From: Alkalilimnicola ehrlichii MLHE-1
GTDB lineage: Bacteria; Pseudomonadota; Gammaproteobacteria; Nitrococcales; Halorhodospiraceae
Length of the DNA stretch: 32,000 nucleotides
Direction of reading: 5' to 3'
NCBI RefSeq assembly: GCF_000014785.1
Contig: NC_008340.1
Location: 300,001 to 332,000 of the forward strand
A model generated the notes under the pieces. That model was not told where the DNA came from. It searched no databases and saw only the letters and a program-made list of their open reading frames with translations. Shown here piece after piece: positions 1-18,315 of the stretch (position 1 is the stretch's first letter; each line of letters begins with the position of its first letter). Made by a program: the position numbers and the translations under genes.

Positions 1-655
1 TCGGCACGGGTCAGGGTTTTCCACTGGCGGGCCTCGTCCCGGGCGTAGCCCGCGCGGTCGATCTCGGCCATGGCCTGGTAGCGCGGCAGGCGCGCGAGCA
101 GGTTCGCCGGCGGCTGCCAGAGCAGACGGCAGTGGTTGTGGCCGGCCAGTCCGGTGCCGGCGAAGGCCTCCAGTCGGGCATCGACGCCGTCGCGCTCCAC
201 GGGGGCGAGGCCGTTGACGGCGAGACGCCCCCCGGCGGTGTCGAGCCCGACGCCGCCGCCCAGCGCCACGGAGACGGCGGCATGGCCGTGGAGCACGGGC
301 TCGATGTGCAGGCAGTAGCGGCCGATGGAGCGGGCATCGGGGTGATCGGCATCAAGCCCGAAGGGGACGATGACCGGCTCCGCCTTGGAGGGGTCGGGCA
401 GCTGGATGGGCGCGAGGGCGATCTCGCCACGACCGAAATCGAAGGCGTGCTGGCCGCGCAATCGCAACACGACCGGCAAGCCGTGCTGCCCGCGGGCCAC
501 GGTGGCGGTGATGCCCAGCTCGTCGAAGGCAAGGCTGGGGGCCACGCTGACCGTCCGGCCGCCGGCGTTGCCCCCGGTGTCGATGCCGGCGGTGTCCTGG
601 TAGCGGGCGGTCAGGCCGATGCGGGCGCCGGTTCCGGGGGCCTCGGTCTCCGGCT
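1..655. repeat. Direct repeat copy A (partner 2676..3330, constant offset 2675 nt, no indels seen up to about 630)
   Basis: Aligned by eye: long runs are identical, e.g. ggtcagggttttccactggcgggcctcgtcccgggcgtagcccgcgcggtcgatctcggccatggcctggtagcgcggcaggcgcgcgagcaggttcgccggcggctgccagagcagacggcagtggttgtggccggccagtccggtgccggcgaaggcctccagtcgggcatcgacgccgtcgcgctccac. Scattered substitutions occur. Similarity decays right of about 630-700 and still holds at the left window edge. Confidence 0.9.
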
Positions 656-740
656 CGCTCTGCTCCTCCGACTCGGGCCGGCGGCAGCCCCGCCAGGAGC
701 GCCAACCAGTCAGGGTGGTGACCTGCCAAAACAGGAGCAT
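1..740 (-). CDS. 5'-truncated paralog of the central region of the 1100-aa protein (partial, runs off the left window edge)
   Basis: ATG at 740..738 lies 4 nt after the Sel1 gene stop. The frame stays open to position 1, so it has no stop in the window and is missing from the ORF track. My translation is MLLFWQVTTLTGWRSWRGCRRPESEEQSEPETEAPGTGARIGLTARYQDTAGIDTGGNAGGRTVSVAPSLAFDELGITATVARGQHGLPVVLRLRGQHAFDFGRGEIALAPIQLPDPSKAEPVIVPFGLDADHPDARSIGRYCLHIEPVLHGHAAVSVALGGG... It is collinear and in the same frame as about aa 597-815 of the 1817..5119 product. No obvious Shine-Dalgarno precedes the ATG. Confidence 0.55.
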   Translation of the reverse strand, partial: MLLFWQVTTLTGWRSWRGCRRPESEEQSEPETEAPGTGARIGLTARYQDTAGIDTGGNAGGRTVSVAPSLAFDELGITATVARGQHGLPVVLRLRGQHAFDFGRGEIALAPIQLPDPSKAEPVIVPFGLDADHPDARSIGRYCLHIEPVLHGHAAVSVALGGGVGLDTAGGRLAVNGLAPVERDGVDARLEAFAGTGLAGHNHCRLLWQPPANLLARLPRYQAMAEIDRAGYARDEARQWKTLTRA

Positions 741-744
741 TTCG

Positions 745-1758
745 CTACAGGCCGTACTTGGGCGGGAAGTAGGACAGTGGGGGCTCGCGGTTCAGCCAGT
801 CCTCGGCGAGTTCTTCGGCTTCGGCGATTTCTTCGTCGGATAGGCGCTCCCCGTATCGCTCCAGAAGGCTCTCGGCCGTGCTAGCTCGTGTTTCTTCATA
901 CAGCGCGTGCAATATGGCCCACCCTTTGACGGGATCGGGTTCGTCCGGGTAGCAGTAATCAATCAACTCCCCTGGGGCGAGGTGACAAAATCCGTAGGTA
1001 ATGCGCTTCCGAATATGCCCACGCTCCGAACCTTCAACGACCCAGTTCCACGCCGCTTCCATTTTTTCTTGCCGAATTAGATTCCCCACGAGGTTGTATA
1101 TGGCCGGGGCATAGCCCTGCTCGGCGGCCTTGCGGAACCAGGGCTCGGCGGCTTCGACGTCTTTCAGCTGCGGGGGCCATTCGCCGGAGCGTTCCTGGGT
1201 GATAGTTCCCAGCCAATCTTGGGCCTCCGGGTTTCCGGCCTCGGCGGCACGTTCCAGCCAGTCTAGGGCCGTGCGGGGTTCCCCGAGCATGTTGTAGACA
1301 TCAAATAGGGTCGACATGGCGATCGGGTCACCATGTTCGGCCTTGGGTAGTTCCTGCTCGAGAGCCTTGTCCACCCACGCTTCATATTTCTCGGGGCAAA
1401 TGTCAGCCAACTTGCAGATCATGCCGTGTTCGAGCCGGAGCATGGCATGGGGATCCCCGCCCTGCGCCGCGCGGTGGTACCAGTCGATGGCCTCGCGGGA
1501 CATGCCGCGATCCAGTAGCCGGTTCGCCTCGCCCAGGTAGTAGATGGCCTCGACATCACCGGCCCCGGCCGCTTCTTCCAGCGGCGGCTGCATGTCGATC
1601 CATTCATGCAGGCCCCACAGGCGCATTCCTTCTTCTTTAGCCTGTTGCTGCTCGGCATTGAGCTTCAGGGATGTTTTGTCTTCTCCATCGTTGGGTTGAG
1701 CCGTGCCGGCCCATAAGCCAACGATGAGGATGAACACTAGAATTTTTTTGCGGGGCAT
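745..1758 (-). CDS. Secreted Sel1-like repeat (SLR/TPR-family) protein, 337 aa; candidate immunity/partner protein
   Basis: The internal ATG at 1758 of track ORF 745..2169 gives MPRKKILVFILIVGLWAGTAQPNDG. That is a basic n-region, a hydrophobic core and an AxA-like site with no lipobox Cys. Repeated Sel1-type motifs are present (GDVEAIYYLGE...AIDWYHRAAQGGDPHAM; ALDWLERAAEAGNPEAQ; EPWFRKAAEQGYAPAIYNL). The longer 474-aa version would overlap the upstream gene by about 350 nt. Confidence 0.8.
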   Translation of the reverse strand: MPRKKILVFILIVGLWAGTAQPNDGEDKTSLKLNAEQQQAKEEGMRLWGLHEWIDMQPPLEEAAGAGDVEAIYYLGEANRLLDRGMSREAIDWYHRAAQGGDPHAMLRLEHGMICKLADICPEKYEAWVDKALEQELPKAEHGDPIAMSTLFDVYNMLGEPRTALDWLERAAEAGNPEAQDWLGTITQERSGEWPPQLKDVEAAEPWFRKAAEQGYAPAIYNLVGNLIRQEKMEAAWNWVVEGSERGHIRKRITYGFCHLAPGELIDYCYPDEPDPVKGWAILHALYEETRASTAESLLERYGERLSDEEIAEAEELAEDWLNREPPLSYFPPKYGL

Positions 1759-1816
1759 TGCCAAGACCTTTGTTAACCCTGAGCAAACTGGCTCTTGTCG
1801 CCGCACGCTTGCCTTT

Positions 1817-4800
1817 CTACTGAATGTGACGGGAAAGCCAGCCGGCATTCTGTCTGTATTTCCATTGACGGTCCTGTTGCTCCAGCTGTCCGCTGCCTGC
1901 TGACATGAAATTGTCCAGCCGCCCTCGGTTCTCGGCATACGCATCGGCCCTCGATTCGTCGGTAGGCTGTCCGTCTCGGGCCATGCGCACCACGGCCTTT
2001 TCAAACAGCTTCTGCGCCGGGTGCGGGTGCTCTGCGGAGAAGTCGCGTCGGGGGCCGTAGACGCCGGCCATGACGCCGGAGACGATCCATTGCAGGCAGT
2101 TGAGGATCGCCCGTTGGTGGAACACAAGAGCCTGTTCACGCCCGAACCGCTGTACTTGCTTCTGGCCATCCCGCTGAATCTCCACCTCGAACGCCTGCGG
2201 CCGACTGGTCAGGGTGTATAACAGCGGCCCCAGGGCCTCGGGCGGTAGCTGGCGCACCCAGGCGGCAATGGCGTCCCGTTGCGGGTCGTTGACGATGGTG
2301 TAGGCGATCCGGCTGGCCATGTCCCGGTCCCGGGTAAACCACTCGATCATCTGGCGCAGTCGGTGGGTGCCGCGCAGCAGGAGCAGGGCGGGTTCGACCA
2401 GGGTGATGGCGGCGAGATAGGCCAGGCGGCTCATCTCCTCGAAGGCGTCTTCGTCGATCCAGTCGACGCGCTCGTAGCCGACCTCCACCAGCGCCTGGTG
2501 CATCATGGCGAGCCAGAGGTCGAGGTGGCGGGGGTCAAGCGCCAGGCGCACGCTGCCCCCGCCGCCGACGCCGAGCACCAGGCGCAGGGAGGCGTGCAGC
2601 ACGAAGCGGCCGTTGTGCAGGCCGAGCCGGAAGGCGGCCTCGCCGCCGACGCCGACGCGCACCTCGGGGTTGATCTCGGCGGCGGTCAGGGTTTTCCACT
2701 GGCGGGCCTCGTCCCGGGCGTAGCCCGCGCGGTCGATCTCGGCCATGGCCTGGTAGCGCGGCAGGCGCGCGAGCAGGTTCGCCGGCGGCTGCCAGAGCAG
2801 ACGGCAGTGGTTGTGGCCGGCCAGTCCGGTGCCGGCGAAGGCCTCCAGTCGGGCATCGACGCCGTCGCGCTCCACGGGGGCGAGGCCGTTGACGGCGAGA
2901 CGGCCCCCGGCGGTGTCGAGCCCGACGCCGCCGCCCAGCGCCACGGACACGGCGGCATGGCCGTGGAGCACGGGCTCGATGTGCAGGCAGTAGCGGCCGA
3001 TGGAGCGGGCGTCCGGGTGATCCGCCTCCAGCCCGAACGGGACGATGACCGGCTCCGCCTTGGCGGGATCGGGCAGCTGGATGGGCGCGAGGGCGATCTC
3101 GCCACGGCCGAAGTCGAAGGCGTGCTGGCCGCGCAATCGCAACACGACCGGCGAGCCGTGCTGCCCGCGGGCCACGGTGGCGGTGATGCCCAGCTCGTCG
3201 AGAGCGAGGCTGGGGGCCACACTGACCGTCCGGCCGCCGGCGTTGCCCCCGGTGTCGATGCCGGCGGTGTCCTGGTAGCGGGCGGTCAGGCCGATGCGGG
3301 CGCCGTTTCCGGAAGCGGCTGTCTCCGGTTCGGCCTGCGCCACGGGTCCGGGCCGGCGCAGCCACAGGGGTGCCTCCCCGGACAGCGCCCGGTCGCGCCG
3401 GTCGGGCTCGGCGTATGCGCCGGCCAGCAGGCGCAGGAGCTGCGCCGGGCCACTGGCATCGAACAGGCGCATGGGGTGGTTGAGCGGGTCGGCGAACAGG
3501 ATCCGGCGCAGGCGCCGGCCCCACTCCTCCCGGGCGCTGTCGTCGGCAAGGCGGTCGATGACCAGGCCCTGGTGGTCGAGGTCGTGGAAGAAGCGTTCCG
3601 GCTCGAACAGCCCGAGCGGCTCGCTGTGCCAGTCGGGGTTCCAGTCGAGCCGCCGGCAGCCGCGTCGGGTGAGCCACCCGGTCAGTGCCGTGTCGGGCAG
3701 GGAGCGGGGCTCGGTGACCGTGCGGCTGTCGTGCGCGATGGCGGCATCGCGCTGGCGGGCGTAGTGGGGGCGGGTCTCGCCCAGCTGGTGCAGGCTCAGG
3801 TGATCGAGGGTGCGCTGCCGACCGGGGCCGCTGAACTCGCGCAGGGGGAAGTCGGCGCGCACCAGCCGGTGGATCGGGGGCGGGCGGTAGGGTTCGGGGT
3901 CGCGGATGTCGTCGGGGCCCAGGTCCCAGTGCAGGACGCGCCTCGGGCGCGTGCGGTCCACCCGGCGCCGGGCCGTGCGGTAGAGGCGGTCCATGCGCTC
4001 GCGCAGCCGGTCGAACCGCGCCTGCTCGTCGGTGAACAGGAAGATGGGCAGCGGGGTGGCCCGGCCCGTGCCCTGTTCCCACTCCCTGAGCCGCGTGTCC
4101 ACGTCCTCGCGCAAGGCGTCGAGTTCGTCCAGGGTCGCGAAGTAGCGGGCCACGTAGTCCACGCCGTCGGCGAAGCCGGCGTCCGGGTCCTCAGCCAGCG
4201 CCAGCTCGGGGGTGGCCACGCCCAGCCCGGCCAGCTCGATGAGACTGTCGATGTAGTGGCGGTAGTCCTGCTCCAGTTGCGGGATGTAGTGCTCGATCAC
4301 GGAGGCGATCTCGCAGCGTTCGACGGCCTCTGGTACCGGGTCCTGGTCGCAGAGCGCCACATGCCGGCGGTATTGCTCCAGGATCTTATGGAGCGGCCGC
4401 GTCGGTGGCAGGCCCTGACCCTGTTCCAGGTGGGACCGAGCACCCTGGAAAGCAAGCTCCCGCCGCCGGTGATAGCGCTGCAGCGCCTCGCGGATGCGCG
4501 CCTCGCTGTCGCCGTGGACCAGGGCGCTATCGACGACATAGCCGGCCTTCTCGGCCTTGTCCAGGCCGCGTTGATAAAGGGCCTGAAGTGCGTCGAGATG
4601 GTCGTTGCTCTCGTGGATGCGTGCCGGTTCCGGGCATTGGGTCGGTACGGCCGAAGGCATTGAATGGTCGCCGGACCAGGATTGCGAGGTGCTCACGCTG
4701 GTGGTGCCCTGGAAAGGCACGCCGTCCACCACCCGTTGCAGCAGCGTGTCCGGGGCCTCGTCCTGAAGGGCGGCGAGCTGCTGGAGGGTCTGCGCGAACC

Positions 4801-5119
4801 GTTGGCGGTCCGCTTCCCCCAGGAAACTGACCGGATGCGCGGGCAGGAAGCTGTCCAGCACGCCCGCCTCCTCGGACAGCCGCCGGTTGCGCTCGTCGCG
4901 GTCGTCCACGGCGGCGATGTCGGCCAGCTTGTCGGCCGCGTGGTGCATCGCGGCGGCGGCTGTGGCGTTGAGCAGCCAGAACTCGCCGGAGCCGGTGAGA
5001 TAGACGATGTCCGCCCACAGGAACGTTGCGCACAGGGGGCGCGGGTCTTCGTGGAAGAGGTCGTCGTCGCGGCCGCGCGGTCCCGCGGGCCAGACCTGGG
5101 GGGCGATGGAGTCGGTCAT
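1817..5119 (-). CDS. Large hypothetical protein, 1100 aa, no recognisable family; candidate effector/toxin
   Basis: Uninterrupted 3.3-kb ORF with strong GC3 bias in this frame. The 794-aa plus-strand ORF 2279..4663 has the G/V/A/Q/H-rich look of an antisense shadow. No N-terminal signal peptide (MTDSIAPQVWPAGPRGRDDDLFHEDP). The central part is Gly-rich with an alternating, beta-like pattern. The C-terminal part is helical-looking with hydrophobic stretches (LAYLAAITLVEPALLLL, AILNCLQWIVSGVMAGVYG). Confidence 0.85.
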   Translation of the reverse strand: MTDSIAPQVWPAGPRGRDDDLFHEDPRPLCATFLWADIVYLTGSGEFWLLNATAAAAMHHAADKLADIAAVDDRDERNRRLSEEAGVLDSFLPAHPVSFLGEADRQRFAQTLQQLAALQDEAPDTLLQRVVDGVPFQGTTSVSTSQSWSGDHSMPSAVPTQCPEPARIHESNDHLDALQALYQRGLDKAEKAGYVVDSALVHGDSEARIREALQRYHRRRELAFQGARSHLEQGQGLPPTRPLHKILEQYRRHVALCDQDPVPEAVERCEIASVIEHYIPQLEQDYRHYIDSLIELAGLGVATPELALAEDPDAGFADGVDYVARYFATLDELDALREDVDTRLREWEQGTGRATPLPIFLFTDEQARFDRLRERMDRLYRTARRRVDRTRPRRVLHWDLGPDDIRDPEPYRPPPIHRLVRADFPLREFSGPGRQRTLDHLSLHQLGETRPHYARQRDAAIAHDSRTVTEPRSLPDTALTGWLTRRGCRRLDWNPDWHSEPLGLFEPERFFHDLDHQGLVIDRLADDSAREEWGRRLRRILFADPLNHPMRLFDASGPAQLLRLLAGAYAEPDRRDRALSGEAPLWLRRPGPVAQAEPETAASGNGARIGLTARYQDTAGIDTGGNAGGRTVSVAPSLALDELGITATVARGQHGSPVVLRLRGQHAFDFGRGEIALAPIQLPDPAKAEPVIVPFGLEADHPDARSIGRYCLHIEPVLHGHAAVSVALGGGVGLDTAGGRLAVNGLAPVERDGVDARLEAFAGTGLAGHNHCRLLWQPPANLLARLPRYQAMAEIDRAGYARDEARQWKTLTAAEINPEVRVGVGGEAAFRLGLHNGRFVLHASLRLVLGVGGGGSVRLALDPRHLDLWLAMMHQALVEVGYERVDWIDEDAFEEMSRLAYLAAITLVEPALLLLRGTHRLRQMIEWFTRDRDMASRIAYTIVNDPQRDAIAAWVRQLPPEALGPLLYTLTSRPQAFEVEIQRDGQKQVQRFGREQALVFHQRAILNCLQWIVSGVMAGVYGPRRDFSAEHPHPAQKLFEKAVVRMARDGQPTDESRADAYAENRGRLDNFMSAGSGQLEQQDRQWKYRQNAGWLSRHIQ
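2676..3330. repeat. Direct repeat copy B (partner 1..655), inside the 1100-aa CDS
   Basis: See copy A. It corresponds to about aa 597-815 of the large protein. Confidence 0.9.
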
Positions 5120-5271
5120 GCACGGGGCTCCCGGGCCGCCTCGCGCAGGCGTCGCTGATGGTGCAGCAGCGTCAGCCAGTTGTGGGCATCGACGCGCAGG
5201 CCGATCCGAGTGGGTGGCGCCTCAGCGCCTGCGCGCGGCAGGGGAAAGTACAGTCCGTTGTCTTGTTGCAT
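5116..5271 (-). CDS. Possible 51-aa leader/partner ORF, translationally coupled (ATGA overlap) to the 1100-aa gene
   Basis: Below the track size cutoff. My translation is MQQDNGLYFPLPRAGAEAPPTRIGLRVDAHNWLTLLHHQRRLREAARPRA-like (ends ...EPRA). GGAG lies 5 nt upstream of the ATG at 5271. Its TGA stop (5118..5116) overlaps the ATG (5119..5117) of the large gene. About three quarters of its codons end in G/C. Confidence 0.3.
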   Translation of the reverse strand: MQQDNGLYFPLPRAGAEAPPTRIGLRVDAHNWLTLLHHQRRLREAAREPRA

Positions 5272-5307
5272 GCCGGCTCCGTGGCATAAGTCCATGATTC
5301 CGTCTGC

Positions 5308-5336
5308 AGTCTATGGGGCCCGCGTCCCTTCATCAA
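5308..5336 (-). promoter_or_regulatory. Candidate sigma70-type promoter for the leader ORF / 1100-aa gene
   Basis: The minus strand reads TTGATG (5336..5331), a 17-nt spacer, then TAGACT (5313..5308). It lies in the relatively AT-richer gap between the rsmA stop and the leader ORF. This is a pattern match only. Confidence 0.3.
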
Positions 5337-5373
5337 GTCGACGCATTGTGAGGATAAGAGGGCATGGGGCGGC

Positions 5374-6198
5374 TCAAGGAGTATCTCTGCTTGCGTTCCG
5401 TTTTGTTCTGGTGTGGGCCTGGCTCAGGGCGGCAAACTGCTCCAAGGACAGATTCTCGGCCCGTTCTCGGGGGTCAATTCCGACTCCGATAATGGTGTCA
5501 GCGGACATTAACGGGCGCAGGGTGTTGCGTAGGGTCTTGCGGCGCTGGGAGAAGGCCTGGGTCACCAGCCGGGCGAATGCCTGCTCGTCGCCTACGTCCA
5601 CCGTGGGTTCGGCGTGCGGCACCAGCCGGACGAAGGCGGAGTCCACCTTGGGCGGCGGGCGGAAGGCGCCCGGCGGTAGCCGGAACAGGTTGGTGACCGC
5701 GCAGCGGTACTGCACCATTACCGACAGCCGCCCGTAGGTCTTGCTGCCGGGCGGTGCGGCCAGCCGCTCCACCACCTCCTTCTGCAGGGTGAAGTGCATG
5801 TCCTGGATGACATCGGCGCTCTCCAGAAGGTGGAAGAGCAGCGGGGTGGAGATGTTATAGGGTAGATTGCCCACCACCCGCAGCCGTGCTGGCGGTGCTG
5901 GGGCCAGCTGGCGGAAGTCGAAGCGCAGGGCATCGGCCTGGTGCACGGTCAATTCACCGGCGGTGCGGGCCCGCGCCTGCAGCGGGGCCACCAGGTCGCG
6001 GTCCAGCTCCACGGCGGTCAGCCGCCCGGCGGCGCGCAGCAGCGGCAGGGTGAGTGCCCCCTCGCCGGGGCCGATCTCCACCAGGGGGTCGCCGGGCCGG
6101 GGGCGGATGGCCTTGACCATGCGGGAGATCAGTGTGGGATCGTGCAGAAAGTTCTGCCCGAAGCGCTTGCGGGGGCGGTGGCGGCGGTGGTTGTTCAT
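5374..6198 (-). CDS. rsmA: 16S rRNA (adenine1518/1519-N6)-dimethyltransferase
   Basis: 274 aa. N-terminus [28 protein letters not shown] and [14 protein letters not shown] motif, typical of KsgA/RsmA. Confidence 0.95.
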
Positions 6199-6278
6199 GC
6201 CACGCAGTTTATCCGGCTGCGCCCGCTGCGGAAATGGGCGATGCTCGTATGCAACGTGGCAAGTCGGGAGACAGGCAG

Positions 6279-6920
6279 ATGATCAACACCACCGTGCGTC
6301 GGCTGGGCGGCACGTTCTTTAAGGGGTTGGCGGCAATCCTGCCCGCCGTGGTCACCGTTTATGTGTTGTGGTGGCTGGGCAGCACCGCCGAGGCCATCCT
6401 CGGCGGCCTCATCCAGTGGGTGTTGCCCACCAGCTTCTACATCCCCGGACTGGGTTTGATTGCGGGGGTCGGTCTGGTCTTCGCCCTGGGGGTGCTGCTC
6501 CAGGCCTACGTCTTTCGGCGCATCTGGGAGTGGGGCGAGGGGCTGATGACCCGCCTGCCGGTGATCAAGACCATCTACGGCGCGGTTCAGGACTTGATGG
6601 GCTTTTTCTCCGGCGACGCCACCCGCAAGATGCAGCAGGTGGTGGTGGTGGACCTGCCCGGCGTGCCCTTCCGCCTGCTCGGCATCGTCACCCGGGAGGA
6701 CTTCTCCCAATTGCCGGACGCGCTCGGCGGCGGGGACACCATCGCGGTCTATACCCCCATGAGCTACCAGATCGGGGGCTACACGCTGATGCTGCCCCGG
6801 GACTGCGTGCACCCCATCGATATGAGCGTGGAGGATGCCATGCGCTACGCGGTCACGGCCGGCATGTCGATAAAAAAACCCACGCCTGCTCCGGGCCCAT
6901 CACCCGGTGAGAATCATTGA
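6279..6920 (+). CDS. DUF502 family membrane protein
   Basis: Start chosen at the ATG 8 nt after GGGAG (6266..6270). Begins [33 protein letters not shown], has two hydrophobic helices, then [14 protein letters not shown], characteristic of DUF502. The start could instead be 6249. Confidence 0.8.
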
Positions 6921-7185
6921 CGGGTGCTGGCAAGACGGGTTTCGGGTAACTATGATGGTTTGCGGACCATAACGACGGGGTCATGCTGCGGCTCGGGAGC
7001 CCGGCCGGCATCACAATGAGAACAGCCGGTCTGGGTTTCGAGGCCTGGCCCCTAAACATAACGAAGCCGCCACCAGTCTCGGCTGACGCGGATACAGGGC
7101 CCAAAAGGCCCGGTATTTCGGGACCTCCGACTCCGGATCCCTGCCGCTGACGCCGCGCGCGTGGCTAAACCCAAGAGGTGAACCC

Positions 7186-9873
7186 ATGGCTGCAGTTGAA
7201 CCCCTCCCAGAGGGTGATGTTGATCCGCTCGAGACCCGGGAGTGGCTCGAGGCACTCGAGGCCGTTATCGAGGAGGAGGGCCCCGAGCGCGCCCAGTACC
7301 TGCTGGAGCAACTGGTCGAGAAAACCCGCCGACGCGGCGGCGTGGCCCCCTTCAAGGCCACCACTGCGTACGAGAACACCATCCCCCGCCACCTTGAGGC
7401 CCGCTCCCCCGGAGACCACCAACTGGAGTGGCGCCTGCGTTCGATCATGCGCTGGAACGCCATGGCGATGGTGGTGCAGGCCAACAAGGAGCATGACGGT
7501 ATCGGGGGGCACATCGCCTCCTACGCCTCGGCGGCGACGCTCTACGAGACCGGTTTCAACCACTTCTGGCATGCGCCGTCGGACGAGCACGGCGGCGACA
7601 TGGTCTTCATCCAGGGCCATTCGGCGCCCGGTATCTATGCCCGGGCATTCCTCGAGGGCCGCCTCACCGAGGATCAACTGCACAATTTCCGCCAGGATGT
7701 CGGAGGTGAAGGCGTTACCTCCTATCCTCACCCCTGGCTGATGCCGGAGTTCTGGCAGTTTCCCACCGTCTCCATGGGGCTGGGGCCGATCATGGCCATC
7801 TACCAGGCCCGGTTCATGAAGTACATGCATGACCGCGAGGTCATCGACACCGAGGGCCGCAAGGTGTGGGCCTTCATGGGCGACGGTGAGATGGACGAGC
7901 CGGAGTCCTTGGGGGCGATCGGCTTGGCCGCCCGCGAGAAGCTGGACAACTTGGTGTTCGTGGTCAACTGCAACCTGCAGCGGCTGGACGGCCCGGTCCG
8001 CGGTAACGCCAAGATTATCCAGGAGCTGGAGGGCGAGTTCCGCGGCGCCGGCTGGAATGTCATCAAGCTGATCTGGGGCTCCGGCTGGGACGCGCTGCTG
8101 GAGCGCGACCGCACTGGGCTGCTGCGCAAGCGCATGGAAGAGTGCGTGGACGGCGAGTACCAGAACTTCAAGGCCAAGGGCGGTGCCTACACCCGCGAGC
8201 ACTTCTTCGGCAAGTACCCGGAGCTCAAGGACATGGTGGCCCACATGTCCGACGAGGAGATTGCCCGGCTCAACCGCGGCGGCCACGATCCGCACAAGGT
8301 CTACGCCGCCTACCACGCGGCGGCCAACCACAAGGGCCAGCCCACCGTCATCCTGGTGAAGACGGTGAAGGGCTACGGCATGGGCGAGGCCGGCGAGGGC
8401 CAGAACATCACCCACCAGCAGAAGAAGATGGGTGAGGCGGCGCTCAAGGCCTTCCGCGATCGGTTCGATATCCCGATCCCGGACGATAAGATCGCCGAGG
8501 CGCCCTTCTACAAGCCGGACGATGACAGTCCGGAGATCAAGTACCTGCACGAGCGCCGCCAGGCGTTGGGTGGCTACCTGCCCAGTCGTCGCACCGAGGC
8601 GGCGCCGCTGAAGGCGCCGGCGCTGTCCGCCTTCGACGTGCTGCTGAAGGACAGCGGCGACCGCGAGATGTCCACCACCATGGCCTTCGTGCGGGCGCTG
8701 ACCATCCTCACCCGCGACAAGGACCTGAAAAAGCACATAGTACCCATCGTGCCGGACGAGGCGCGCACCTTCGGCATGGAGGGGCTGTTCCGCCAGCTGG
8801 GCATCTACTCCTCCGTCGGTCAGCTCTACACCCCGCAGGATGCGGATCAGCTGATGTATTACAAGGAGGACAAGAAGGGGCAGATCCTGCAGGAGGGGAT
8901 CAACGAGGCCGGTGCCTTCTCCTCCTGGATTGCGGCGGGCACCAGCTACAGCAACCATGGCGTGAACATGGTGCCCTTCTACGCCTACTACTCCATGTTC
9001 GGCTTCCAGCGCATCGGGGACCTGGCCTGGGCCGCCGGCGACATGCAGGCGCGCGGCTTCCTGATGGGCGGTACCGCCGGCCGCACCACCCTGAACGGCG
9101 AGGGGTTGCAGCACGAGGATGGCCACAGCCACCTGCTGGCCTCGACCATCCCCAACTGTCGGGCCTATGACCCCACCTTTGCCTACGAGATGGCGGTGCT
9201 CATCCAGGACGGGCTGCGGCGGATGTACGTGGATCAGGAGAACTGCTTCTACTACATCACCATGCTCAACGAGAACTACCGGCAGCCGGCCATGCCCAAG
9301 GGTGCCGAGGAGGGCATCGTCAAGGGCATGTACCTGTTCCGCGAGGGCAAGAAGAGCTCTGGGAGGAAGAAGGCCCCGCGGGTGCAGCTCATGGGCTCCG
9401 GTTCCATCCTGCGCGAGGTGATTGAGGCGGCCGACCTGTTGCAGCAGGACTTCGGCGTGGAGGCGGACATCTGGAGCGTTACCTCCTTCACCGAGGTGCG
9501 CCGTGAGGGCATGTCCGCCGAGCGCTATAACACGCTGAATCCGGAGACGAAGAAGCCCCGGGTGCCCTACCTGCAGGAATGCCTGAAGGGGCGCGCGGGG
9601 CCGGCGATTGCGGCGACCGACTACATGCGCACCTTCGCCGACCAGATCCGTCCTTGGATGGATCGCACCTACCGGGTGCTGGGCACGGACGGCTATGGCC
9701 GTTCGGATACCCGCGAGAAGCTCCGCCAGTTCTTCGAGGTGGACCGCTACCACGTGGCGGTGGCCGCACTGAAGGCACTGGCCGATGACGGCGTCGTGCC
9801 GGTGGCTAAGGTCTCCGAGGCCATCCGTAAGTACGGCGTGGACCCGGAGCGGCCCGACCCCTGGACGGCCTAG
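7186..9873 (+). CDS. aceE: Pyruvate dehydrogenase E1 component (homodimeric type)
   Basis: 895 aa. DVDPLETREWLEALEAVIEEEGPERAQYLLEQL N-terminus, GHSAPGIYARAFLEGRL and GDGEMDEPES ThDP-binding motif. Confidence 0.97.
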   Translation: MAAVEPLPEGDVDPLETREWLEALEAVIEEEGPERAQYLLEQLVEKTRRRGGVAPFKATTAYENTIPRHLEARSPGDHQLEWRLRSIMRWNAMAMVVQANKEHDGIGGHIASYASAATLYETGFNHFWHAPSDEHGGDMVFIQGHSAPGIYARAFLEGRLTEDQLHNFRQDVGGEGVTSYPHPWLMPEFWQFPTVSMGLGPIMAIYQARFMKYMHDREVIDTEGRKVWAFMGDGEMDEPESLGAIGLAAREKLDNLVFVVNCNLQRLDGPVRGNAKIIQELEGEFRGAGWNVIKLIWGSGWDALLERDRTGLLRKRMEECVDGEYQNFKAKGGAYTREHFFGKYPELKDMVAHMSDEEIARLNRGGHDPHKVYAAYHAAANHKGQPTVILVKTVKGYGMGEAGEGQNITHQQKKMGEAALKAFRDRFDIPIPDDKIAEAPFYKPDDDSPEIKYLHERRQALGGYLPSRRTEAAPLKAPALSAFDVLLKDSGDREMSTTMAFVRALTILTRDKDLKKHIVPIVPDEARTFGMEGLFRQLGIYSSVGQLYTPQDADQLMYYKEDKKGQILQEGINEAGAFSSWIAAGTSYSNHGVNMVPFYAYYSMFGFQRIGDLAWAAGDMQARGFLMGGTAGRTTLNGEGLQHEDGHSHLLASTIPNCRAYDPTFAYEMAVLIQDGLRRMYVDQENCFYYITMLNENYRQPAMPKGAEEGIVKGMYLFREGKKSSGRKKAPRVQLMGSGSILREVIEAADLLQQDFGVEADIWSVTSFTEVRREGMSAERYNTLNPETKKPRVPYLQECLKGRAGPAIAATDYMRTFADQIRPWMDRTYRVLGTDGYGRSDTREKLRQFFEVDRYHVAVAALKALADDGVVPVAKVSEAIRKYGVDPERPDPWTA

Positions 9874-9951: not shown

Positions 9952-11649
9952 ATGGCAGACGTCAAAGAAGTCCGCGTCCCCGATATCGGTGATTTCGCCG
10001 AGGTGGACGTGATTGAGGTGCTGGTCGCCCCCGGCGACCGGATCGAGAAGGAGCAATCGCTGATCACCCTGGAGTCGGACAAGGCCTCCATGGAGGTGCC
10101 CTCCAGTGAGGCCGGGGTGGTCAAAGAGGTCAAAATCAAGGTGGGCGACAAGGTCTCCGAGGGGGACGTGGTCGTCTTGGTGGAGGCCGAGGAGGGCGGT
10201 GATTCGCCCGCCGAGGCCCCGACGGGCAGCGACGCCGGGGCGTCCGCCCCAGCCGCCGGCGGTTCCGATGCCCCAGCCGCCGGGGGCGGTGAGGCCGTCC
10301 AGGTGAAGGTTCCGGACATTGGTGATTTCGCCGAGGTGGATGTCATTGAGGTGCTGGTCAGCCCCGGTGACACGGTGGAGCAGGAGCAGTCGCTGATCAC
10401 CCTGGAGTCGGACAAGGCCTCAATGGAGGTGCCTTCGAGCCACGCGGGCGTGGTCAAGGAGGTCAAGGTCAAGGTGGGCGACAAGGTCTCCGAAGGGGAT
10501 ACGGTCGCCGTGCTGGAGAGCCAGGGTGCCGGTGGGGGTGCCACGGCCTCCGCGCCAGCCAAGGAGGCAGGGGAGGCGGCAAAGCCGTCCCAGGAGCCGG
10601 CCGAGACCTACGCCGCTGACAGCCAGCGCGAGGCCGCGGCGCCGGAGAGCTACAAGGCGAACGCCTACCTGCTCACCGACTCCCGTCCGCCCCAGGCACC
10701 GCCGCCCATCGACCGCGAGGCCCATCGCCGCGCCCACGCCAGCCCGGCGGTCCGCCGCTTCGCCCGTGAGCTGGGCGTGGATCTGGGCCAGTTGCAGGGC
10801 AGGGGCTCGGGCCGCAAGGGGCGCATCCTCAAGGAGGACGTCCAGGCCTACGTCAAGCAGGCCCTGGCGGGGGGCGGAGCGGCCGCGGCACCGGCCGGGC
10901 AGGCCGGTGGCGCCGGCATCCCGCCCATCCCCGAGGTGGACTTCAGCAAGTTCGGCGAGGTGGAGCGCCAGCCGCTCTCGCGCATCCAGAAGCTCTCCGG
11001 GCCGCACCTGCAGCGCTCCTGGCTCAATGTGCCCCACGTCACCCAGTTTGACGAGGCGGACATCACCGAACTGGAGGCCTTCCGCAAGTCGATGAAGACC
11101 GAGGCGGAAAAGGCCGGGGTCAAGCTGACCCCGCTGGCCTTCATGGTGAAGGCCTCCGCGGCGGCGCTGCGGGCCTTCCCGCGCTTCAACAGCAGCCTGG
11201 CGCCGGCCGGTGATGAGCTGATCCTCAAGAAGTACGTGAACATTGGCGTGGCGGTGGATACCCCCAATGGCCTGGTGGTACCGGTGATCCGCGATGCCGA
11301 CCGGAAGAGCGTCTACCAGATCGCCGAGGACCTGGGCACGCTCTCTGCCAAGGCGCGTGACGGCAAGCTGGGGCCGTCGGACATGCAGGGCGGTTGCTTC
11401 ACCATTTCCAGCCTGGGCGGCATCGGCGGTACCGCCTTCACGCCCATCGTCAATGCGCCCGAGGTGGCCATCCTCGGGGTCTCCCGCTCGTCCATGAAGC
11501 CGGTCTGGAACGGCAGCGAGTTCGAGCCGCGGTTGATGCTGCCACTGTCGCTGTCCTACGACCACCGGGTGATTGACGGCGCCGCCGGCGCCCGGTTCAC
11601 CGCCTGGCTGGCTCAGGCCCTGGGCGACATTCGCCGGCTGTTGCTGTAA
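9952..11649 (+). CDS. aceF: Dihydrolipoyllysine-residue acetyltransferase (PDH E2), two lipoyl domains
   Basis: ATG at 9952 after GGAAGGAAG. Two lipoyl domains ([15 protein letters not shown] twice), an E3-binding domain ([16 protein letters not shown]) and a catalytic domain ending in the [12 protein letters not shown] active-site motif. Confidence 0.95.
10383..10493. repeat. 111-nt stretch identical to 11767..11877 (aceF lipoyl domain 2 versus lpd lipoyl domain)
   Basis: Base-by-base comparison: ggagcagtcgctgatcaccctggagtcggacaaggcctcaatggaggtgccttcgagccacgcgggcgtggtcaaggaggtcaaggtcaaggtgggcgacaaggtctccga is identical in both places. aceF lipoyl domain 1 (about 10050..10170) has several mismatches to both. 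Confidence 0.9.
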
Positions 11650-11668: not shown

Positions 11669-13450
11669 ATGGCAGATTTGGTAGAAGTGAAGGTTCCGGA
11701 CATCGGCGACTTCGACGCGGTGGACGTCATCGAGGTGCTGGTCAGCCCGGGTGACGAGATCGAGGTGGAGCAGTCGCTGATCACCCTGGAGTCGGACAAG
11801 GCCTCAATGGAGGTGCCTTCGAGCCACGCGGGCGTGGTCAAGGAGGTCAAGGTCAAGGTGGGCGACAAGGTCTCCGAGGGGGATGTGGTCTGCACCCTCG
11901 AGGCGGCTGAAGCCACGGCCGGGGGCGAGGCCCCCGCCACCGGCGGCGGCAGGGCGGAAAAGCCCGCCGAGCCGGAACCGCCGGCCGCGGCCACCAGGCC
12001 CGCCCCGGCGGCCGCCCCGCAGGGGGATGCCCCGGTGGACGCCGACTGCGACGTGCTGGTACTGGGCGCCGGCCCGGGCGGCTACACCGCCGCCTTCCGG
12101 GCGGCGGACCTGGGCCTGAAGACGGTGCTGGTGGAGCGCTACCCGACCCTGGGGGGCGTTTGCCTGAACGTGGGCTGCATTCCCTCCAAGGCTTTGCTGC
12201 ACGCGGCCAAGGTGATCGACGAGGCGGAGCAGTTCGCTGACCACGGCATCACCTTCGGTAAGCCCAAGATCGACATCCGCAAGCTGGCCGACTGGAAATC
12301 CAGCGTGGTCAAGAAGTTGACCGGCGGACTGGCCGGTCTGGCCAAACAGCGCAAGGTGGAGGTGGTGACCGGCAAGGGGGCCTTCAAGGACGCCTACCAC
12401 CTGGAGGTGGACGGTAAGGAGGGCAAGCGCACCATCAGTTTTCGGCACTGCATCATCGCCGCCGGCTCCCGGCCGGTGGTCCCGCCCCCGCTGGCGGTGG
12501 ACGACCCCCGGGTTATGGACTCCACCGGCGCGCTGGAGCTGGAGGAGGTGCCGGAGCGGCTGCTGGTGGTCGGCGGTGGCATCATCGGCCTGGAGATGGC
12601 CTGTGTGTACGACGCGTTGGGCAGCAAGGTGACGGTGGTGGAGCTGGCGGACCGGCTGATGCCGGGCGCGGACGCCGATTTGGTGAAGGTGCTGCGCAAG
12701 CGCATCGATAAGCGCTATGACGCCATCCACCTGAACACCCTGGTCAAGGAGCTGAAGCCCAACAAGAAGAGCATCACGGTGAAGTTCGAGGGCAAGGACG
12801 CGCCGGAGAGCGACCGGTTCGACCGGGTGCTGCTGTCGGTGGGGCGCCGGCCGAACACCGACCTGATCGGCCTGGAGGCCACCGGGCTCAAGCCCAATGA
12901 TCAGGGTTACATCGACGTCGATGAGTATATGCGCACCGGTGTGTCGCACATCCATGCCATTGGTGACATCGTCGGCCAGCCGATGCTGGCACACAAGGCG
13001 TCGCACGAGGGCAAGGTGGCGGCGGAGGTTATCGCGGGCGAGAAAAGCGCCTGGGATGCCCGGGCGATTCCATCGGTGGCCTACACGGACCCGGAGGTGG
13101 CCTGGGTGGGCATCACCGAGGAGGAGGCGAAGGCGCAGGGGATTGCGTACGAGAAGGGCGCCTTCCCCTGGGCCGCCAACGGACGGTCGCTGTCGCTCAA
13201 TTACCAGGACGGGATCAGCAAGCTGTTGTTCGACGAGCAGTCGGGGCAGCTGATTGGCGCCGGCATCGTCGGCCCCAACGCCGGTGACCTGATCGCCGAG
13301 GCGGCCCTGGCCCTCGAGATGGGCGCGGAGGCGGCGGACATCGGCCTGACGGTGCACCCGCACCCAACCCTGTCCGAGACCGTGGCCATGGCCGCCGAGG
13401 CGGCGGAGGGGACGCTGACCGATCTCTATATCCCCAAGAAGAAGAAATAG
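11669..13450 (+). CDS. lpdA: Dihydrolipoyl dehydrogenase (E3) with N-terminal lipoyl domain
   Basis: ATG at 11669 gives [15 protein letters not shown]..., a lipoyl domain with SDKASMEV. An Ala/Pro linker follows, then DVLVLGAGPGGY FAD fold, the redox-active GGVCLNVGCIPSK and C-terminal HPHPTLSE. Confidence 0.93.
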   Translation: MADLVEVKVPDIGDFDAVDVIEVLVSPGDEIEVEQSLITLESDKASMEVPSSHAGVVKEVKVKVGDKVSEGDVVCTLEAAEATAGGEAPATGGGRAEKPAEPEPPAAATRPAPAAAPQGDAPVDADCDVLVLGAGPGGYTAAFRAADLGLKTVLVERYPTLGGVCLNVGCIPSKALLHAAKVIDEAEQFADHGITFGKPKIDIRKLADWKSSVVKKLTGGLAGLAKQRKVEVVTGKGAFKDAYHLEVDGKEGKRTISFRHCIIAAGSRPVVPPPLAVDDPRVMDSTGALELEEVPERLLVVGGGIIGLEMACVYDALGSKVTVVELADRLMPGADADLVKVLRKRIDKRYDAIHLNTLVKELKPNKKSITVKFEGKDAPESDRFDRVLLSVGRRPNTDLIGLEATGLKPNDQGYIDVDEYMRTGVSHIHAIGDIVGQPMLAHKASHEGKVAAEVIAGEKSAWDARAIPSVAYTDPEVAWVGITEEEAKAQGIAYEKGAFPWAANGRSLSLNYQDGISKLLFDEQSGQLIGAGIVGPNAGDLIAEAALALEMGAEAADIGLTVHPHPTLSETVAMAAEAAEGTLTDLYIPKKKK

Positions 13451-15306: not shown

Positions 15307-16554
15307 ATGGTGGAACACGAGCCTCAACACCAGGCAAGGGGTGAGCACCGACAGGACCACGCGCACTGCTCCTTCTGTGGGCGCCCCGAGGACCAGACTG
15401 GGCCGCTCATCGCCGGGGCGGAGGCGTGGATCTGTGAAGACTGCGTGGCCGAGTCCAAGGCGCGGCTGGACAGCGAATTCACCGGATCACTGACCGACCA
15501 GCTGGCCGGTCTGTCCACCCCGAGGCAGCTGCACGCCCACCTGGACGGCTACGTGATCGGACAGGAACGGGCCAAGCGCCAGTTGGCGGTGGCCGTCTAC
15601 AACCACTATAAGCGACTGATCTGGCGCGGTGCCCGCCGGCCCGGTGAGGTGGCCAAGAGCAATATCCTCATGGTCGGGCCCACCGGCAGTGGCAAGACCC
15701 TGCTGTTGGAGAGCCTGGCCCGCCACCTGGAGGTGCCCTTCGTCACCGCGGACGCCTCCACCTTCACCGCCGCCGGTTATGCCGGGGCCGATGTGGATGA
15801 CATCGCCGTCCGGTTGCTGGAGGCCGCCGGTGGTGATCCTGCCGCCGCGCGTCGGGGCATGGTCTTTCTGGACGAAGTGGACAAGCTGGCATGCCGCGCA
15901 CCGGGCGGCAGCGGTAACGGTCGCGACTTCTCCGGTGAGGGGGTGCAGCAGGCGCTGCTGCGTCTGCTCGAGGGGCGGGTGGTTAACGTGCCGCGCCGGG
16001 GCCGCGGGGGCGGCGTCCACAGCGTGGACACCCGCGACGTGCTGTTTGTCTGCGGCGGCGCATTCCAGGGGCTGCGTCAGCAGATGGCCGGGCGTCGCGC
16101 CGGCGGTGGCGTGGGCTTCGGGGCCCGCCTGGCCGAGACCGCCGAACCGCCGGCAGTCCCGGATGCGGACGACCTGGTGCACTACGGACTGATCCCCGAG
16201 CTGGTGGGACGGCTGCCGGTGGTCACCACCCTGGAGGCATTGAGCGAGGCACAGCTACTGGAGGTCATCAGTCGGCCGCGCAACGCCCTGCTGCGCCAGT
16301 ACCAGGCACTGTTCCGGCAGGACGGCTGTGAGCTGCACTTCACCGCCGGCGCCCTCGAGGCCCTGGCCCGGCGCGCCGCCGAGCGCGGCACCGGTGCCCG
16401 TGGTCTGCGCGCGGAGCTGGAGCGCCTGTTGCTGGAACCCATGTACCACGTTCCGGCCCGGGGCGATGTCGAGGCCGTGGTGGTTACGACCGAGTCAGTG
16501 GCTGGGGCACCTGTGCGCTACTGCAGAAGCCAGGCCTTGCGGCAGGTGGGTTAG
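15307..16554 (+). CDS. ClpX-like AAA+ unfoldase paralog (divergent pore loops)
   Basis: 415 aa from the ATG at 15307. C4 zinc-binding domain CSFCGRPEDQTGPLIAGAEAWICEDC, Walker A GPTGSGKT, Walker B MVFLDEVDK, sensor-2 GARGLR. It is collinear with E. coli ClpX but has GYAG for GYVG, VGF for IGF and a shortened region without R-K-H. It is not next to clpP or lon. Confidence 0.85.
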   Translation: MVEHEPQHQARGEHRQDHAHCSFCGRPEDQTGPLIAGAEAWICEDCVAESKARLDSEFTGSLTDQLAGLSTPRQLHAHLDGYVIGQERAKRQLAVAVYNHYKRLIWRGARRPGEVAKSNILMVGPTGSGKTLLLESLARHLEVPFVTADASTFTAAGYAGADVDDIAVRLLEAAGGDPAAARRGMVFLDEVDKLACRAPGGSGNGRDFSGEGVQQALLRLLEGRVVNVPRRGRGGGVHSVDTRDVLFVCGGAFQGLRQQMAGRRAGGGVGFGARLAETAEPPAVPDADDLVHYGLIPELVGRLPVVTTLEALSEAQLLEVISRPRNALLRQYQALFRQDGCELHFTAGALEALARRAAERGTGARGLRAELERLLLEPMYHVPARGDVEAVVVTTESVAGAPVRYCRSQALRQVG

Positions 16555-16673
16555 GCAGCCGGTGCCCGCCTTGCGTAACAGTAAGTTTGGCGGTAAGGGG
16601 CTGGAGCGGCTAATATGTCGCCCTTGTGTCCAACTAGTCGGCCCTTGTAGTGGCCGGGAGCACCGAACCGCCT

Positions 16674-17750
16674 ATGTCTGATCGTACTGTGGACGACCTG
16701 AACGTCGAGAAGATCGAGCACCTCCCCACCCCCGCCGAGATCAAGGCCCAGCTGCCGCTCAGCGAGCAAGCCCGCCGTCTGGTGGTCGAGGGTCGGGAGA
16801 CCGTTCGCAACATCCTGGATGGCAAGGATCACCGGCTGTTGGTGGTGGTGGGGCCCTGTTCCATCCACGACCCCAAAGCGGCGCTGGACTATGCCAAGCA
16901 ACTGAAAGCGCTGAGTGATCAGGTGGGCGACAGTCTGTTCATCGTCATGCGGGTCTATTTTGAGAAGCCGCGCACGGTGACCGGGTGGAAGGGGCTGATC
17001 AACGACCCCGACATGGACGACTCCTTCCGGATCGACAATGGCCTGTTCCAGGCGCGCAAACTGCTGCTGGACCTGGCTGAGATGGGACTGCCCACAGCCA
17101 CCGAAGCGCTCGACCCGATCATCCCGCAGTACCTGCAGGACCTGATCACCTGGACGGCCATTGGTGCCCGCACCACCGAATCGCAGACCCACCGCGAGAT
17201 GGCCAGCGGCCTCTCCACGCCGGTCGGATTCAAGAATGGCACCGACGGCAGCCTGGACGTGGCCATCAACGCCATGAAGTCCGCCGCCCATCCGCACAGC
17301 TTCCTGGGCATCAACTCCCGCGGCGAGTGCAGTATCATCCGGACCCGCGGCAACAGCTACGGCCACGTGGTGCTGCGCGGCGGCCATGGCCAGCCCAATT
17401 ACGACAGCGTGCACATTGCCCTGTGCGAGCAGGAGCTGGAAAAGGCGGGGCTGCCCGCGCGGATCGTGGTCGACTGCAGCCACGCCAACTCCAACAAGGA
17501 CCCGGCGCTGCAGCCCATGGTGCTGAAGGACCTGGTGCACCAGATCCTGGAGGGCAACCAGTCGCTGGTGGGCGTCATGCTGGAGAGCAACCTGGGCTGG
17601 GGCAACCAGAAGCTGGGGGCCGATCCCGCTGCCCTCGACTACGGGGTCTCCATCACCGATGCCTGTATCGACTGGCCGACCACCGAGCAGGGTCTGCTGG
17701 AGGCGGCGGAAAAGCTGCGCGAGGTGTTGCCCCGGCGGGCCGCGGCCTGA
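16674..17750 (+). CDS. aroG: 3-deoxy-7-phosphoheptulonate (DAHP) synthase, class I
   Basis: DDLNVEKIEHLPTPAEIKAQLP...DHRLLVVVGPCSIHDP aligns with the E. coli AroG N-terminus. KPRT and GxxxESN-type motifs are present. Isozyme (feedback specificity) cannot be told from sequence. The start may instead be the GTG at 16650. Confidence 0.9.
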   Translation: MSDRTVDDLNVEKIEHLPTPAEIKAQLPLSEQARRLVVEGRETVRNILDGKDHRLLVVVGPCSIHDPKAALDYAKQLKALSDQVGDSLFIVMRVYFEKPRTVTGWKGLINDPDMDDSFRIDNGLFQARKLLLDLAEMGLPTATEALDPIIPQYLQDLITWTAIGARTTESQTHREMASGLSTPVGFKNGTDGSLDVAINAMKSAAHPHSFLGINSRGECSIIRTRGNSYGHVVLRGGHGQPNYDSVHIALCEQELEKAGLPARIVVDCSHANSNKDPALQPMVLKDLVHQILEGNQSLVGVMLESNLGWGNQKLGADPAALDYGVSITDACIDWPTTEQGLLEAAEKLREVLPRRAAA

Positions 17751-17883
17751 AGGGTCGACGTCGTGAACTGAATCAATAATAATGTAAAGAACGTGCCAAA
17801 ACCCGACAAAGGGTTGGCATACAGGCGGCGGGCGCTGACGCCGTTTCCGGCGCGGCGCGGCTGTGACCATGGAGGACACCATC

Positions 17884-18315
17884 ATGGCTGACAAACGCAG
17901 GCTTCCCGTGCACGGCATTGAGCCGTACCAGCCGGAGGAAGGCGAGGAGTACATGAGCGAGGCGCAGCTGGAGCACTTCCGCCAGTTGCTGCTGGCCTGG
18001 AAGCGCGAGCTGCAGGAGGAGGTGGAGCGCACCGTGCACCACATGCGCGATGACGCGAACAACTTCGCCGATCCCAACGACCGCGCAACCCAGGAGGAGG
18101 AGTTCGCCCTGGAGCTGCGAACCCGGGATCGTGAGCGGAAGCTCATCCGCAAGATCGACCAGACCCTGGAGAAGATCCGCAAGGATGATTACGGCTACTG
18201 CGATCAGTGCGGTATCGAGATCGGGCTGCGGCGGCTGGAGGCCCGGCCCACGGCCACGCTGTGTATCGACTGCAAGACGCTCGAGGAGATCCGCGAGCGT
18301 CAACGGGTGGCCTGA
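17884..18315 (+). CDS. dksA: RNA polymerase-binding transcription factor DksA
   Basis: GIEPYQPEEGEEYMSEAQLEHFRQLL..., DPNDRATQEEEFALELRTRDRERKLI coiled-coil tip and CDQCGIEIGLRRLEARPTATLCIDC zinc finger. ATG at 17884 sits 7 nt after GGAGGA. Confidence 0.95.
   Translation: MADKRRLPVHGIEPYQPEEGEEYMSEAQLEHFRQLLLAWKRELQEEVERTVHHMRDDANNFADPNDRATQEEEFALELRTRDRERKLIRKIDQTLEKIRKDDYGYCDQCGIEIGLRRLEARPTATLCIDCKTLEEIRERQRVA

Follow-up and report, generated by a model that had tools for sequence, protein, structure and literature searches.

A 5'-truncated effector gene copy in Alkalilimnicola ehrlichii MLHE-1 as a probable orphan toxin-tip module of a predicted type VI secretion cargo effector

The 32,000-nucleotide (nt) stretch of the Alkalilimnicola ehrlichii MLHE-1 chromosome analysed here (NC_008340.1, positions 300,001 to 332,000; hereafter the window, in whose own coordinates positions are given) contains a large gene encoding a protein of 1100 amino acids (aa) and, at its left edge, the beginning of a second copy of the 3' part of that gene, which has lost its head. 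This raises the question of what such a short copy is: a silent substrate for recombination, an independently expressed short paralogue, the debris of a past replacement, or an error of assembly. [quoted passage not shown] The arrangement is well known for other bacterial toxins, and this locus is an instructive but ordinary example of it, in an uncharacterised effector family.

The short copy and the large gene are both encoded on the minus strand, and the ATG of the short copy (740-738) lies in the homologous frame of the 1100-aa open reading frame (ORF; 5119..1817), as a sequence-only reading of the window had claimed. The same reading had described near-identity without insertions or deletions, which is confirmed by an ungapped comparison at an offset of 2675 nt and by a repeat finder, both of which report the repeat arm: positions 1-630 match 2676-3305 at 610 of 630 sites, with a constant offset and zero gaps. 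The offset homology continues through positions 631-690 (40/60 identical) and is at background level past ~690. A 3-nt insertion or deletion that had been placed near 655-700 is absent; the arm ends at the junction of a 297-nt (99-codon) in-frame deletion with microhomology, GCTGCCGCCGGC, where the protein alignment reads TTLTGWRSWRGC versus TALTGWLTRRGC. Eighteen codons differ within 1-630, of which 13 are synonymous and five non-synonymous, in keeping with the synonymous majority noted earlier; the amino-acid changes are the F/L, L/S, S/A and D/E already listed, and an R/A change at codon 8-6, on the window edge, that had been overlooked. The observations that no Shine-Dalgarno-like sequence precedes ATG 740 and that the TAG stop of the preceding ORF sits 4 nt before it both stand. 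This preceding ORF is a separate gene (745-1758) for a Sel1-repeat protein and no part of the large gene, and read-through cannot fuse the two, since the frame of the short ORF differs from that of the Sel1 gene (the first base of the stop is 7 nt away from the ATG).

The remainder of the short copy is found in a re-sequenced MLHE-1 genome (CP183314.1, locus L004), in which L004 10001-10740 is identical to window 1-740, and in a sister strain (CP184336.1, locus L001). In L004, the short copy is an intact ORF of 543 aa, ending where the large gene ends, and a second Sel1/TPR gene (275 aa) lies behind it; L001 has the same four-gene set, and the 246 codons within the window translate to a sequence identical at 244/246 positions to its 543-aa ORF. 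The 543-aa orphan aligns to aa 588-1100 of the large gene, with a near-identical core (aa 588-940, ~95-97% identical; 94.6% nt identity over 1073 nt) and three sharply divergent C-terminal islands: aa 941-955, with a 16-aa insertion, aa 980-998, with an 8-aa deletion, and the last 35 aa (aa 1066-1100), where synonymous divergence (dS) is saturated. Neither decay just outside the window nor uniform identity of ~95% through the C terminus, the two outcomes that the sequence-only reading had named as incompatible with an orphan module, was found, and its proposal of such a module is supported. Both strains have 23 paralogue-specific sites in common, and therefore the duplication is older than the strain split. 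The orphan-type island 1 ('ELAAEEPPNLR.DPE...RVQQLR') is present in full-length effectors of relatives (P0002, 1116 aa, and P0004), and thus the variants in the orphan would be variants that function in full-length effectors elsewhere.

The association of this gene family with the T6SS emerges from its neighbours. A survey of one genome per species returned 35 loci, nearly all from Halomonadaceae, of which ~25 Halomonadaceae loci have the order VgrG, DUF4123, effector, Sel1 (one to six genes); a second MLHE-1 locus (L005) has VgrG, a DUF4123 adaptor, a 1095-aa paralogue, Sel1, an orphan and Sel1, the second locus of the sister strain has one extra orphan-Sel1 pair, and a metagenomic relative has DUF4123 directly upstream of the effector. 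VgrG together with a DUF4123 adaptor is an established signature of T6SS cargo-effector loci (PMC6833914). Over the first 2850 nt, 3-13 sites differ between the large genes of the two MLHE-1 loci, whereas the final ~450 nt (columns 2851-3303) contain 139 differences, so that the architecture by which a polymorphic toxin is recognised, a constant N-terminal part and a variable C-terminal part, is displayed by the paralogous large genes. When scanned against Pfam and NCBIfam, the large and the short protein fell into no family at E<=0.01, and neither RHS/YD repeats or an Rhs core nor a haemagglutinin-repeat filament with VENN was matched at that threshold; a motif search of the effector found no GxSxG lipase motif and no dual HxKxxxxD phospholipase D motifs, a regular-expression search found no N-terminal MIX motifs (hRxGhhYhh and flanking motifs), and a profile search of PDB sequences with the effector gave nothing significant. 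Antisense to the effector gene are ORFs of up to 794 aa (2279-4663, plus strand), which are a by-product of ~70% GC content and not evidence of genes.

Sel1 genes stand behind the large gene and behind every orphan, are 60-85% identical among themselves, and have a putative immunity role; their position after the effector is kept in ~30 loci. The 337-aa Sel1 protein of the window is presumed to be the periplasmic immunity protein of the full-length effector, and its identity to the 275-aa Sel1 protein on the other side of the orphan is 60%. Its signal-peptide-like N-terminus, together with an N-terminal LysM domain in distant relatives of the effector, suggests that the toxin acts in the periplasm. 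The gene at 745-1758 has a GC content of 60% (71% at third codon positions, GC3), against 71-74% (GC3 89-91%) in the flanking effector sequences, which suggests a different origin or constraint. Taken together, these genes constitute an uncharacterised T6SS effector/Sel1-immunity family, mainly of Halomonadaceae and Alkalilimnicola, for which T6SS dependence, toxicity and immunity are predicted.

Orphan C-terminal parts also lie inside Sel1 arrays of other loci (L006, L016 and L023), and the orphans of Onishia and Halomonas koreensis have a core near-identical to that of the resident full-length gene, with divergence at the same three islands. Orphans are truncated at aa ~477 (with the secondary 99-codon deletion), 553, 588, 671, 680 and 765, a variety that fits repeated displacement of the 3' end of a resident effector by incoming effector-immunity units. 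The 543-aa and 541-aa orphans of two A. ehrlichii loci have the same junction, relic and deletion, and therefore derive from one event, the block having later been copied between loci. A Halomonas-like effector C-terminal part with Sel1 on a 1935-nt contig of an actinobacterial assembly (L033, Scrofimicrobium canadense) is probably contamination.

Exchange of sequence between the orphans and the full-length genes is evident from mosaic and concerted patterns. Paralogues inside one genome are closer to each other than orthologues are between strains, and large and short copies have genome-specific residues in common (AFEEMS/EPALLL/WFTR in MLHE-1, AFEAMS/EPGLLL/WLTRERD in the sister strain). The orphans of the two MLHE-1 loci (M1_short543 and M2_short538), ~1 Mb apart, have 2 differences over ~1100 middle alignment columns, compared with 86/293 in the 5' end and 68/148 in the 3' end. 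MLHE-1's locus-2 orphan (538 aa, L005 14357-15973) is a chimera, its 5' end matching one sister-strain orphan and its 3' end the other (L003 14357-15982 and 17148-18521), with one Sel1 gene missing in MLHE-1; a module was therefore lost or gained via recombination between orphans. Between the two strains, divergence amounts to 1.2-3.0% in effector-derived DNA, versus 0-0.25% in the aceE, DUF502, Sel1 and DUF4123 genes (Table 1), a difference of ~10x, and in an alignment of the C-terminal half every strain difference of the short copy (28/28) and of the locus-1 large gene (45/45) recurs in a paralogue of the same genome, leaving no private ones. The ksgA gene (5374-6198), which adjoins the effector locus, is 1.33% diverged from its L001 counterpart, and the aceE and DUF502 genes further on are identical; this divergence may mark the edge of a recombination tract.

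The two MLHE-1 assemblies also differ. At 10/10 of the differences in the tract 2948-3160, the re-sequenced copy equals the locus-2 large gene ~1 Mb away, and at seven of them also the orphan. The VgrG-linked locus-2 gene, Mlg_1143 (P0009), encodes 697 aa in the original MLHE-1 genome, with a frameshift at aa ~650, and is intact in the re-sequenced genome (L005 10001-13288, 1095 aa), where it also differs at aa 605 and 657. The frameshift and the tract fall in the same place in the gene, and the tract could stem from gene conversion that took place recently between laboratory stocks, or else from the mis-assembly or polishing of a five-copy repeat.

These observations can be accommodated as follows. 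The effectors of this family comprise a constant N-terminal half (aa 1-590), presumably for loading onto VgrG via the DUF4123 chaperone, a conserved core (aa 590-940) and a variable tip (aa 941-1100), and a gene for a secreted Sel1-repeat protein, putatively conferring immunity, lies behind each effector. C-terminal displacement, in which a new effector-immunity unit came to lie ahead of it, would have cost the short copy its first ~587 codons; what it retains is a homology arm of ~1 kb from the conserved core, a tip that differs, and a Sel1 gene of its own. Since the N-terminal loading region, a promoter-like site and a Shine-Dalgarno sequence are all missing from it, the orphan most probably is not a delivered toxin. 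Through gene conversion or homologous recombination, it would both give sequence to and take sequence from full-length genes and other orphans. If the direct arms, which are offset from each other by 2675 nt, crossed over, the full-length gene would gain the orphan tip with the matching Sel1 gene behind it. The orphan may have a selective value as a reservoir of this kind.

Promoter-less, N-truncated copies that donate variable segments by gene conversion are known in Neisseria as the silent cassettes of pilE/pilS and the alternative C-terminal cassettes of MafB. The A. ehrlichii orphans resemble these in being N-truncated and promoter-less and in having conserved stretches in common with the expressed gene, and it is conceivable, though rather doubtful, that the five or six copies of A. 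ehrlichii form a pilE/pilS-like silent-cassette system that reshuffles the three tip islands of a T6SS toxin, with the orphan modules as the donors in frequent gene conversion. Unlike in Neisseria, no dedicated conversion machinery or G-quadruplex (G4) element was identified in A. ehrlichii, the product is a putative toxin rather than a surface antigen, and each cassette carries an immunity gene. If such a system operated, conversion would be fast enough to produce ~10x the background divergence between near-identical strains, and might explain the 10-nt conversion tract at 2948-3160 between the two MLHE-1 stocks.

Alternatively, the short copy may be displacement junk, kept only because a selected Sel1 immunity gene, protective against neighbours still firing that toxin tip, sits behind it, with gene conversion as an unselected by-product; we consider this unlikely, and it departs from the orphan-module explanation only on the selective value of exchange. 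Orphan immunity arrays that keep little or nothing of an effector are indeed the predominant form among Halomonadaceae, where as many as six Sel1 genes can follow one effector, and clear decay is visible in a 117-aa stub in L002 and in an internal stop of the orphan-like copy of L039. The Sel1 genes are nearly invariant between strains, and a GC3 of ~90% lets long frames persist by chance, as in the 794-aa antisense ORF at 2279-4663. Against these stand the ORFs of 340-543 aa that remain intact in several Halomonadaceae and in A. ehrlichii, there in three copies and three assemblies, the use of orphan-type islands in full-length genes elsewhere, and a ratio of non-synonymous to synonymous divergence (dN/dS) between orthologous orphans of 0.19, equal to that of the full-length gene.

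The last of these figures bears also on the possibility, clearly an improbable one, that the 543-aa ORF is an expressed short paralogue, translated through coupling to the Sel1 stop 4 nt upstream and serving as a stand-alone toxin domain loaded otherwise or as an intracellular partner of the immunity protein. The sequence-only reading had suggested purifying selection on the short copy, and the synonymous bias behind that suggestion is genuine: by the Nei-Gojobori method, the large and short copies differ over aa 603-814 by 14 synonymous and 8 non-synonymous changes (dN/dS 0.20), and the orthologous orphans of the two strains by 18 and 10 (P(neutral)=2e-5). The bias does not show that the short ORF is translated or selected, because gene conversion draws the variation from a pool of paralogue alleles on which selection had acted when they belonged to full-length effectors; recycled variation of this kind accounts for the low ratio in the short copy, and a low dN/dS of a fragment versus its parent is no proof of expression when paralogues recycle variation. 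The ATG lies 4 nt behind the upstream stop in 3/3 A. ehrlichii orphans, all with intact ORFs, but it is held in a motif, 'TAGCG(G)AAATG', that also follows terminal Sel1 genes without an orphan, which argues that the start codon at 740 is incidental and belongs to the flank of the immunity cassette. Two Halomonadaceae orphans (L006 and L016) both start with MVGMSYGDLK, but this start is an internal methionine of the full-length homologue, upstream of which the homology extends. Many proteins of 200-500 aa in public data match only the C-terminal part of the effector; the truncation points vary widely, however, no Shine-Dalgarno sequence is present, and aa 1-587, the region in common with chaperone-linked effectors, is missing.

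It is scarcely credible that the short copy arose through faulty assembly or through a simple tandem duplication of recent date, for although the two MLHE-1 assemblies disagree exactly within the repeat and the Mlg_1143 frameshift of the original assembly is at the same place, the four-gene arrangement occurs in three independent assemblies (the window, CP183314.1 and CP184336.1), the 23 paralogue-specific sites across strains indicate a duplication that predates the strain split, and the tips and both Sel1 genes are strongly diverged (the Sel1 proteins are 60% identical).

Several observations weigh against the explanation of the short copy as an orphan toxin-tip module. The position of VgrG and DUF4123 upstream of the effector is seen at L005 and the ~25 Halomonadaceae loci and not at the window's own locus: the stretch homologous to the VgrG-linked locus begins 20 nt ahead of the ATG, and thus the window's locus is without vgrG and DUF4123 genes of its own, ksgA being the upstream gene according to Pfam assignment of the neighbours. 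Its effector presumably uses the adaptor and spike of the other locus, as the large genes are virtually identical over the first 950 aa. Among the A. ehrlichii genomes found, none has a full-length gene bearing the complete tip of the window's orphan. AlphaFold2 models of aa 561-1100 (predicted local distance difference test score, pLDDT, 71.6; confident from ~aa 770) and aa 1-600 (pLDDT 76) had no Foldseek match in PDB at E<0.01, with all template modelling scores (TM-scores) <=0.3. We infer the silence of the short ORF only from its missing Shine-Dalgarno and promoter-like sites; a promoter and terminator scan of positions 1-5600 returned nothing anywhere and is uninformative, and the expression signals of the large gene itself are weak as well. 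The 275-aa Sel1 gene of the orphan (L004 11726-12553) has two in-frame deletions, of 8 aa and ~41 aa, relative to five paralogues, and may be degenerating. Finally, part of what looks like gene conversion between assemblies could be an artefact of repeat mis-assembly or polishing.

Sel1-repeat proteins serve as T6SS immunity proteins in Pseudomonas, where Tli5/PA5086-5088 counter PldB. Klebsiella Sel1E against VgrG4 is covered in PMC7108748, and the A. ehrlichii locus is similar to these systems in having secreted Sel1-repeat proteins directly after a known or predicted T6SS toxin, often as tandem paralogous arrays; the A. ehrlichii effector differs in that it has neither HxKxxxxD nor GxSxG and no similarity to phospholipase D or Tle. 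The T6SS auxiliary clusters of Vibrio cholerae share with L005 the order of vgrG, a DUF4123-type adaptor, cargo effector and immunity gene, and there the 3' part of the resident effector, together with its immunity gene, is shifted downstream when new effector-immunity modules arrive (PMC5361080), in a displacement model based on homology-facilitated illegitimate recombination (Kirchberger 2017, PMC5361080); C-terminal displacement was proposed for rhs (Jackson 2009, as cited in PMC5361080). In contrast to V. cholerae, A. ehrlichii keeps half of the effector (457-543 aa) as an intact ORF, gene conversion among its five or six copies is demonstrable, and the families of its effector (no known fold match) and immunity protein (Sel1 repeats) are different.

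Orphan rhs-CT/rhsI and cdiA-CT/cdiI modules are alike in consisting of a 5'-truncated fragment downstream of the main gene with a conserved homology arm (PMC3967940, PMC3482391), and in having a different tip, their own immunity gene and the possibility of a tip swap (Zhang 2012, PMC3482391); activation of an orphan Rhs by recombination has been described in Salmonella, with recombinants that deployed the orphan tip outcompeting their parent (Koskiniemi 2014, PMC3967940). The A. ehrlichii effector differs from Rhs and CdiA in the absence of RHS/YD repeats or CdiA features (by Pfam), in its long arm (~350 aa) and short variable part (~160 aa, in three islands), and in being a predicted VgrG/DUF4123 cargo rather than a PAAR-Rhs cage or a two-partner-secretion filament. 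The explanation as an orphan module offers a function for the "hypothetical" genes Mlg_0264-0267 and the Mlg_1143 locus, and would make them a clear case, found in nature, of contact-dependent weapons being diversified through orphan toxin modules and gene conversion.

Table 1. Features of the effector locus in the window, and differences between MLHE-1 and the sister strain in individual genes (differing sites/sites compared)
Feature	Position	Strand	Basis or count
Orphan effector copy, first 246 codons	1..740	-	ATG 740-738; ORF leaves the window at its left edge; Mlg_0265-type protein P0013
Repeat arm	1..690		Matches large-gene positions 2676-3365 (aa 588-814) at the fixed offset
Relic of large-gene aa 476-491	677..720	-	33/44 nt versus 3649-3692 (local alignment); joined to the arm at GCTGCCGCCGGC
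Sel1-repeat protein, 337 aa	745..1758	-	Pfam Sel1, E=1e-8; signal-peptide-like N-terminus MPRKKILVFILIVGLWAGTAQ
Full-length 1100-aa effector (predicted)	1817..5119	-	ORF; identical to Mlg_0267 / ABI55621 / P0010; homologues preceded by VgrG and DUF4123
Variable C-terminal tip, aa 941-1100	1820..2299	-	Differs between paralogues and orphans (islands in protein alignments)
Large-gene arm repeated in the orphan copy	2676..3365	-	Repeat finder and offset comparison
Tract with all 10 differences between window 1..9000 and CP183314.1	2948..3160	-	Comparison with L004
Upstream limit of homology with the VgrG-linked paralogous locus	5120..5139	-	Local alignment of L005 and L004; 20 nt before ATG
Strain divergence, aceE			0/2688
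Strain divergence, DUF502 gene			0/627
Strain divergence, first Sel1 gene			1/1014
Strain divergence, second Sel1 gene			2/828
Strain divergence, DUF4123			2/792
Strain divergence, large gene, locus 1			97/3303
Strain divergence, short copy			28/1632
Strain divergence, large gene, locus 2			40/3288

Elsewhere in the window, an ORF at 16551-18182 that likewise encodes 543 aa was compared with the orphan and rejected as a relative, there being no similarity between them, and a candidate inserted island at 13.5-19.2 kb was rejected, as the window is collinear with the sister strain. Internal repeats of ~200 nt in aceF/lpd (9976-10525 and 11687-11890, 84-92% identical) are ordinary lipoyl-domain repeats.

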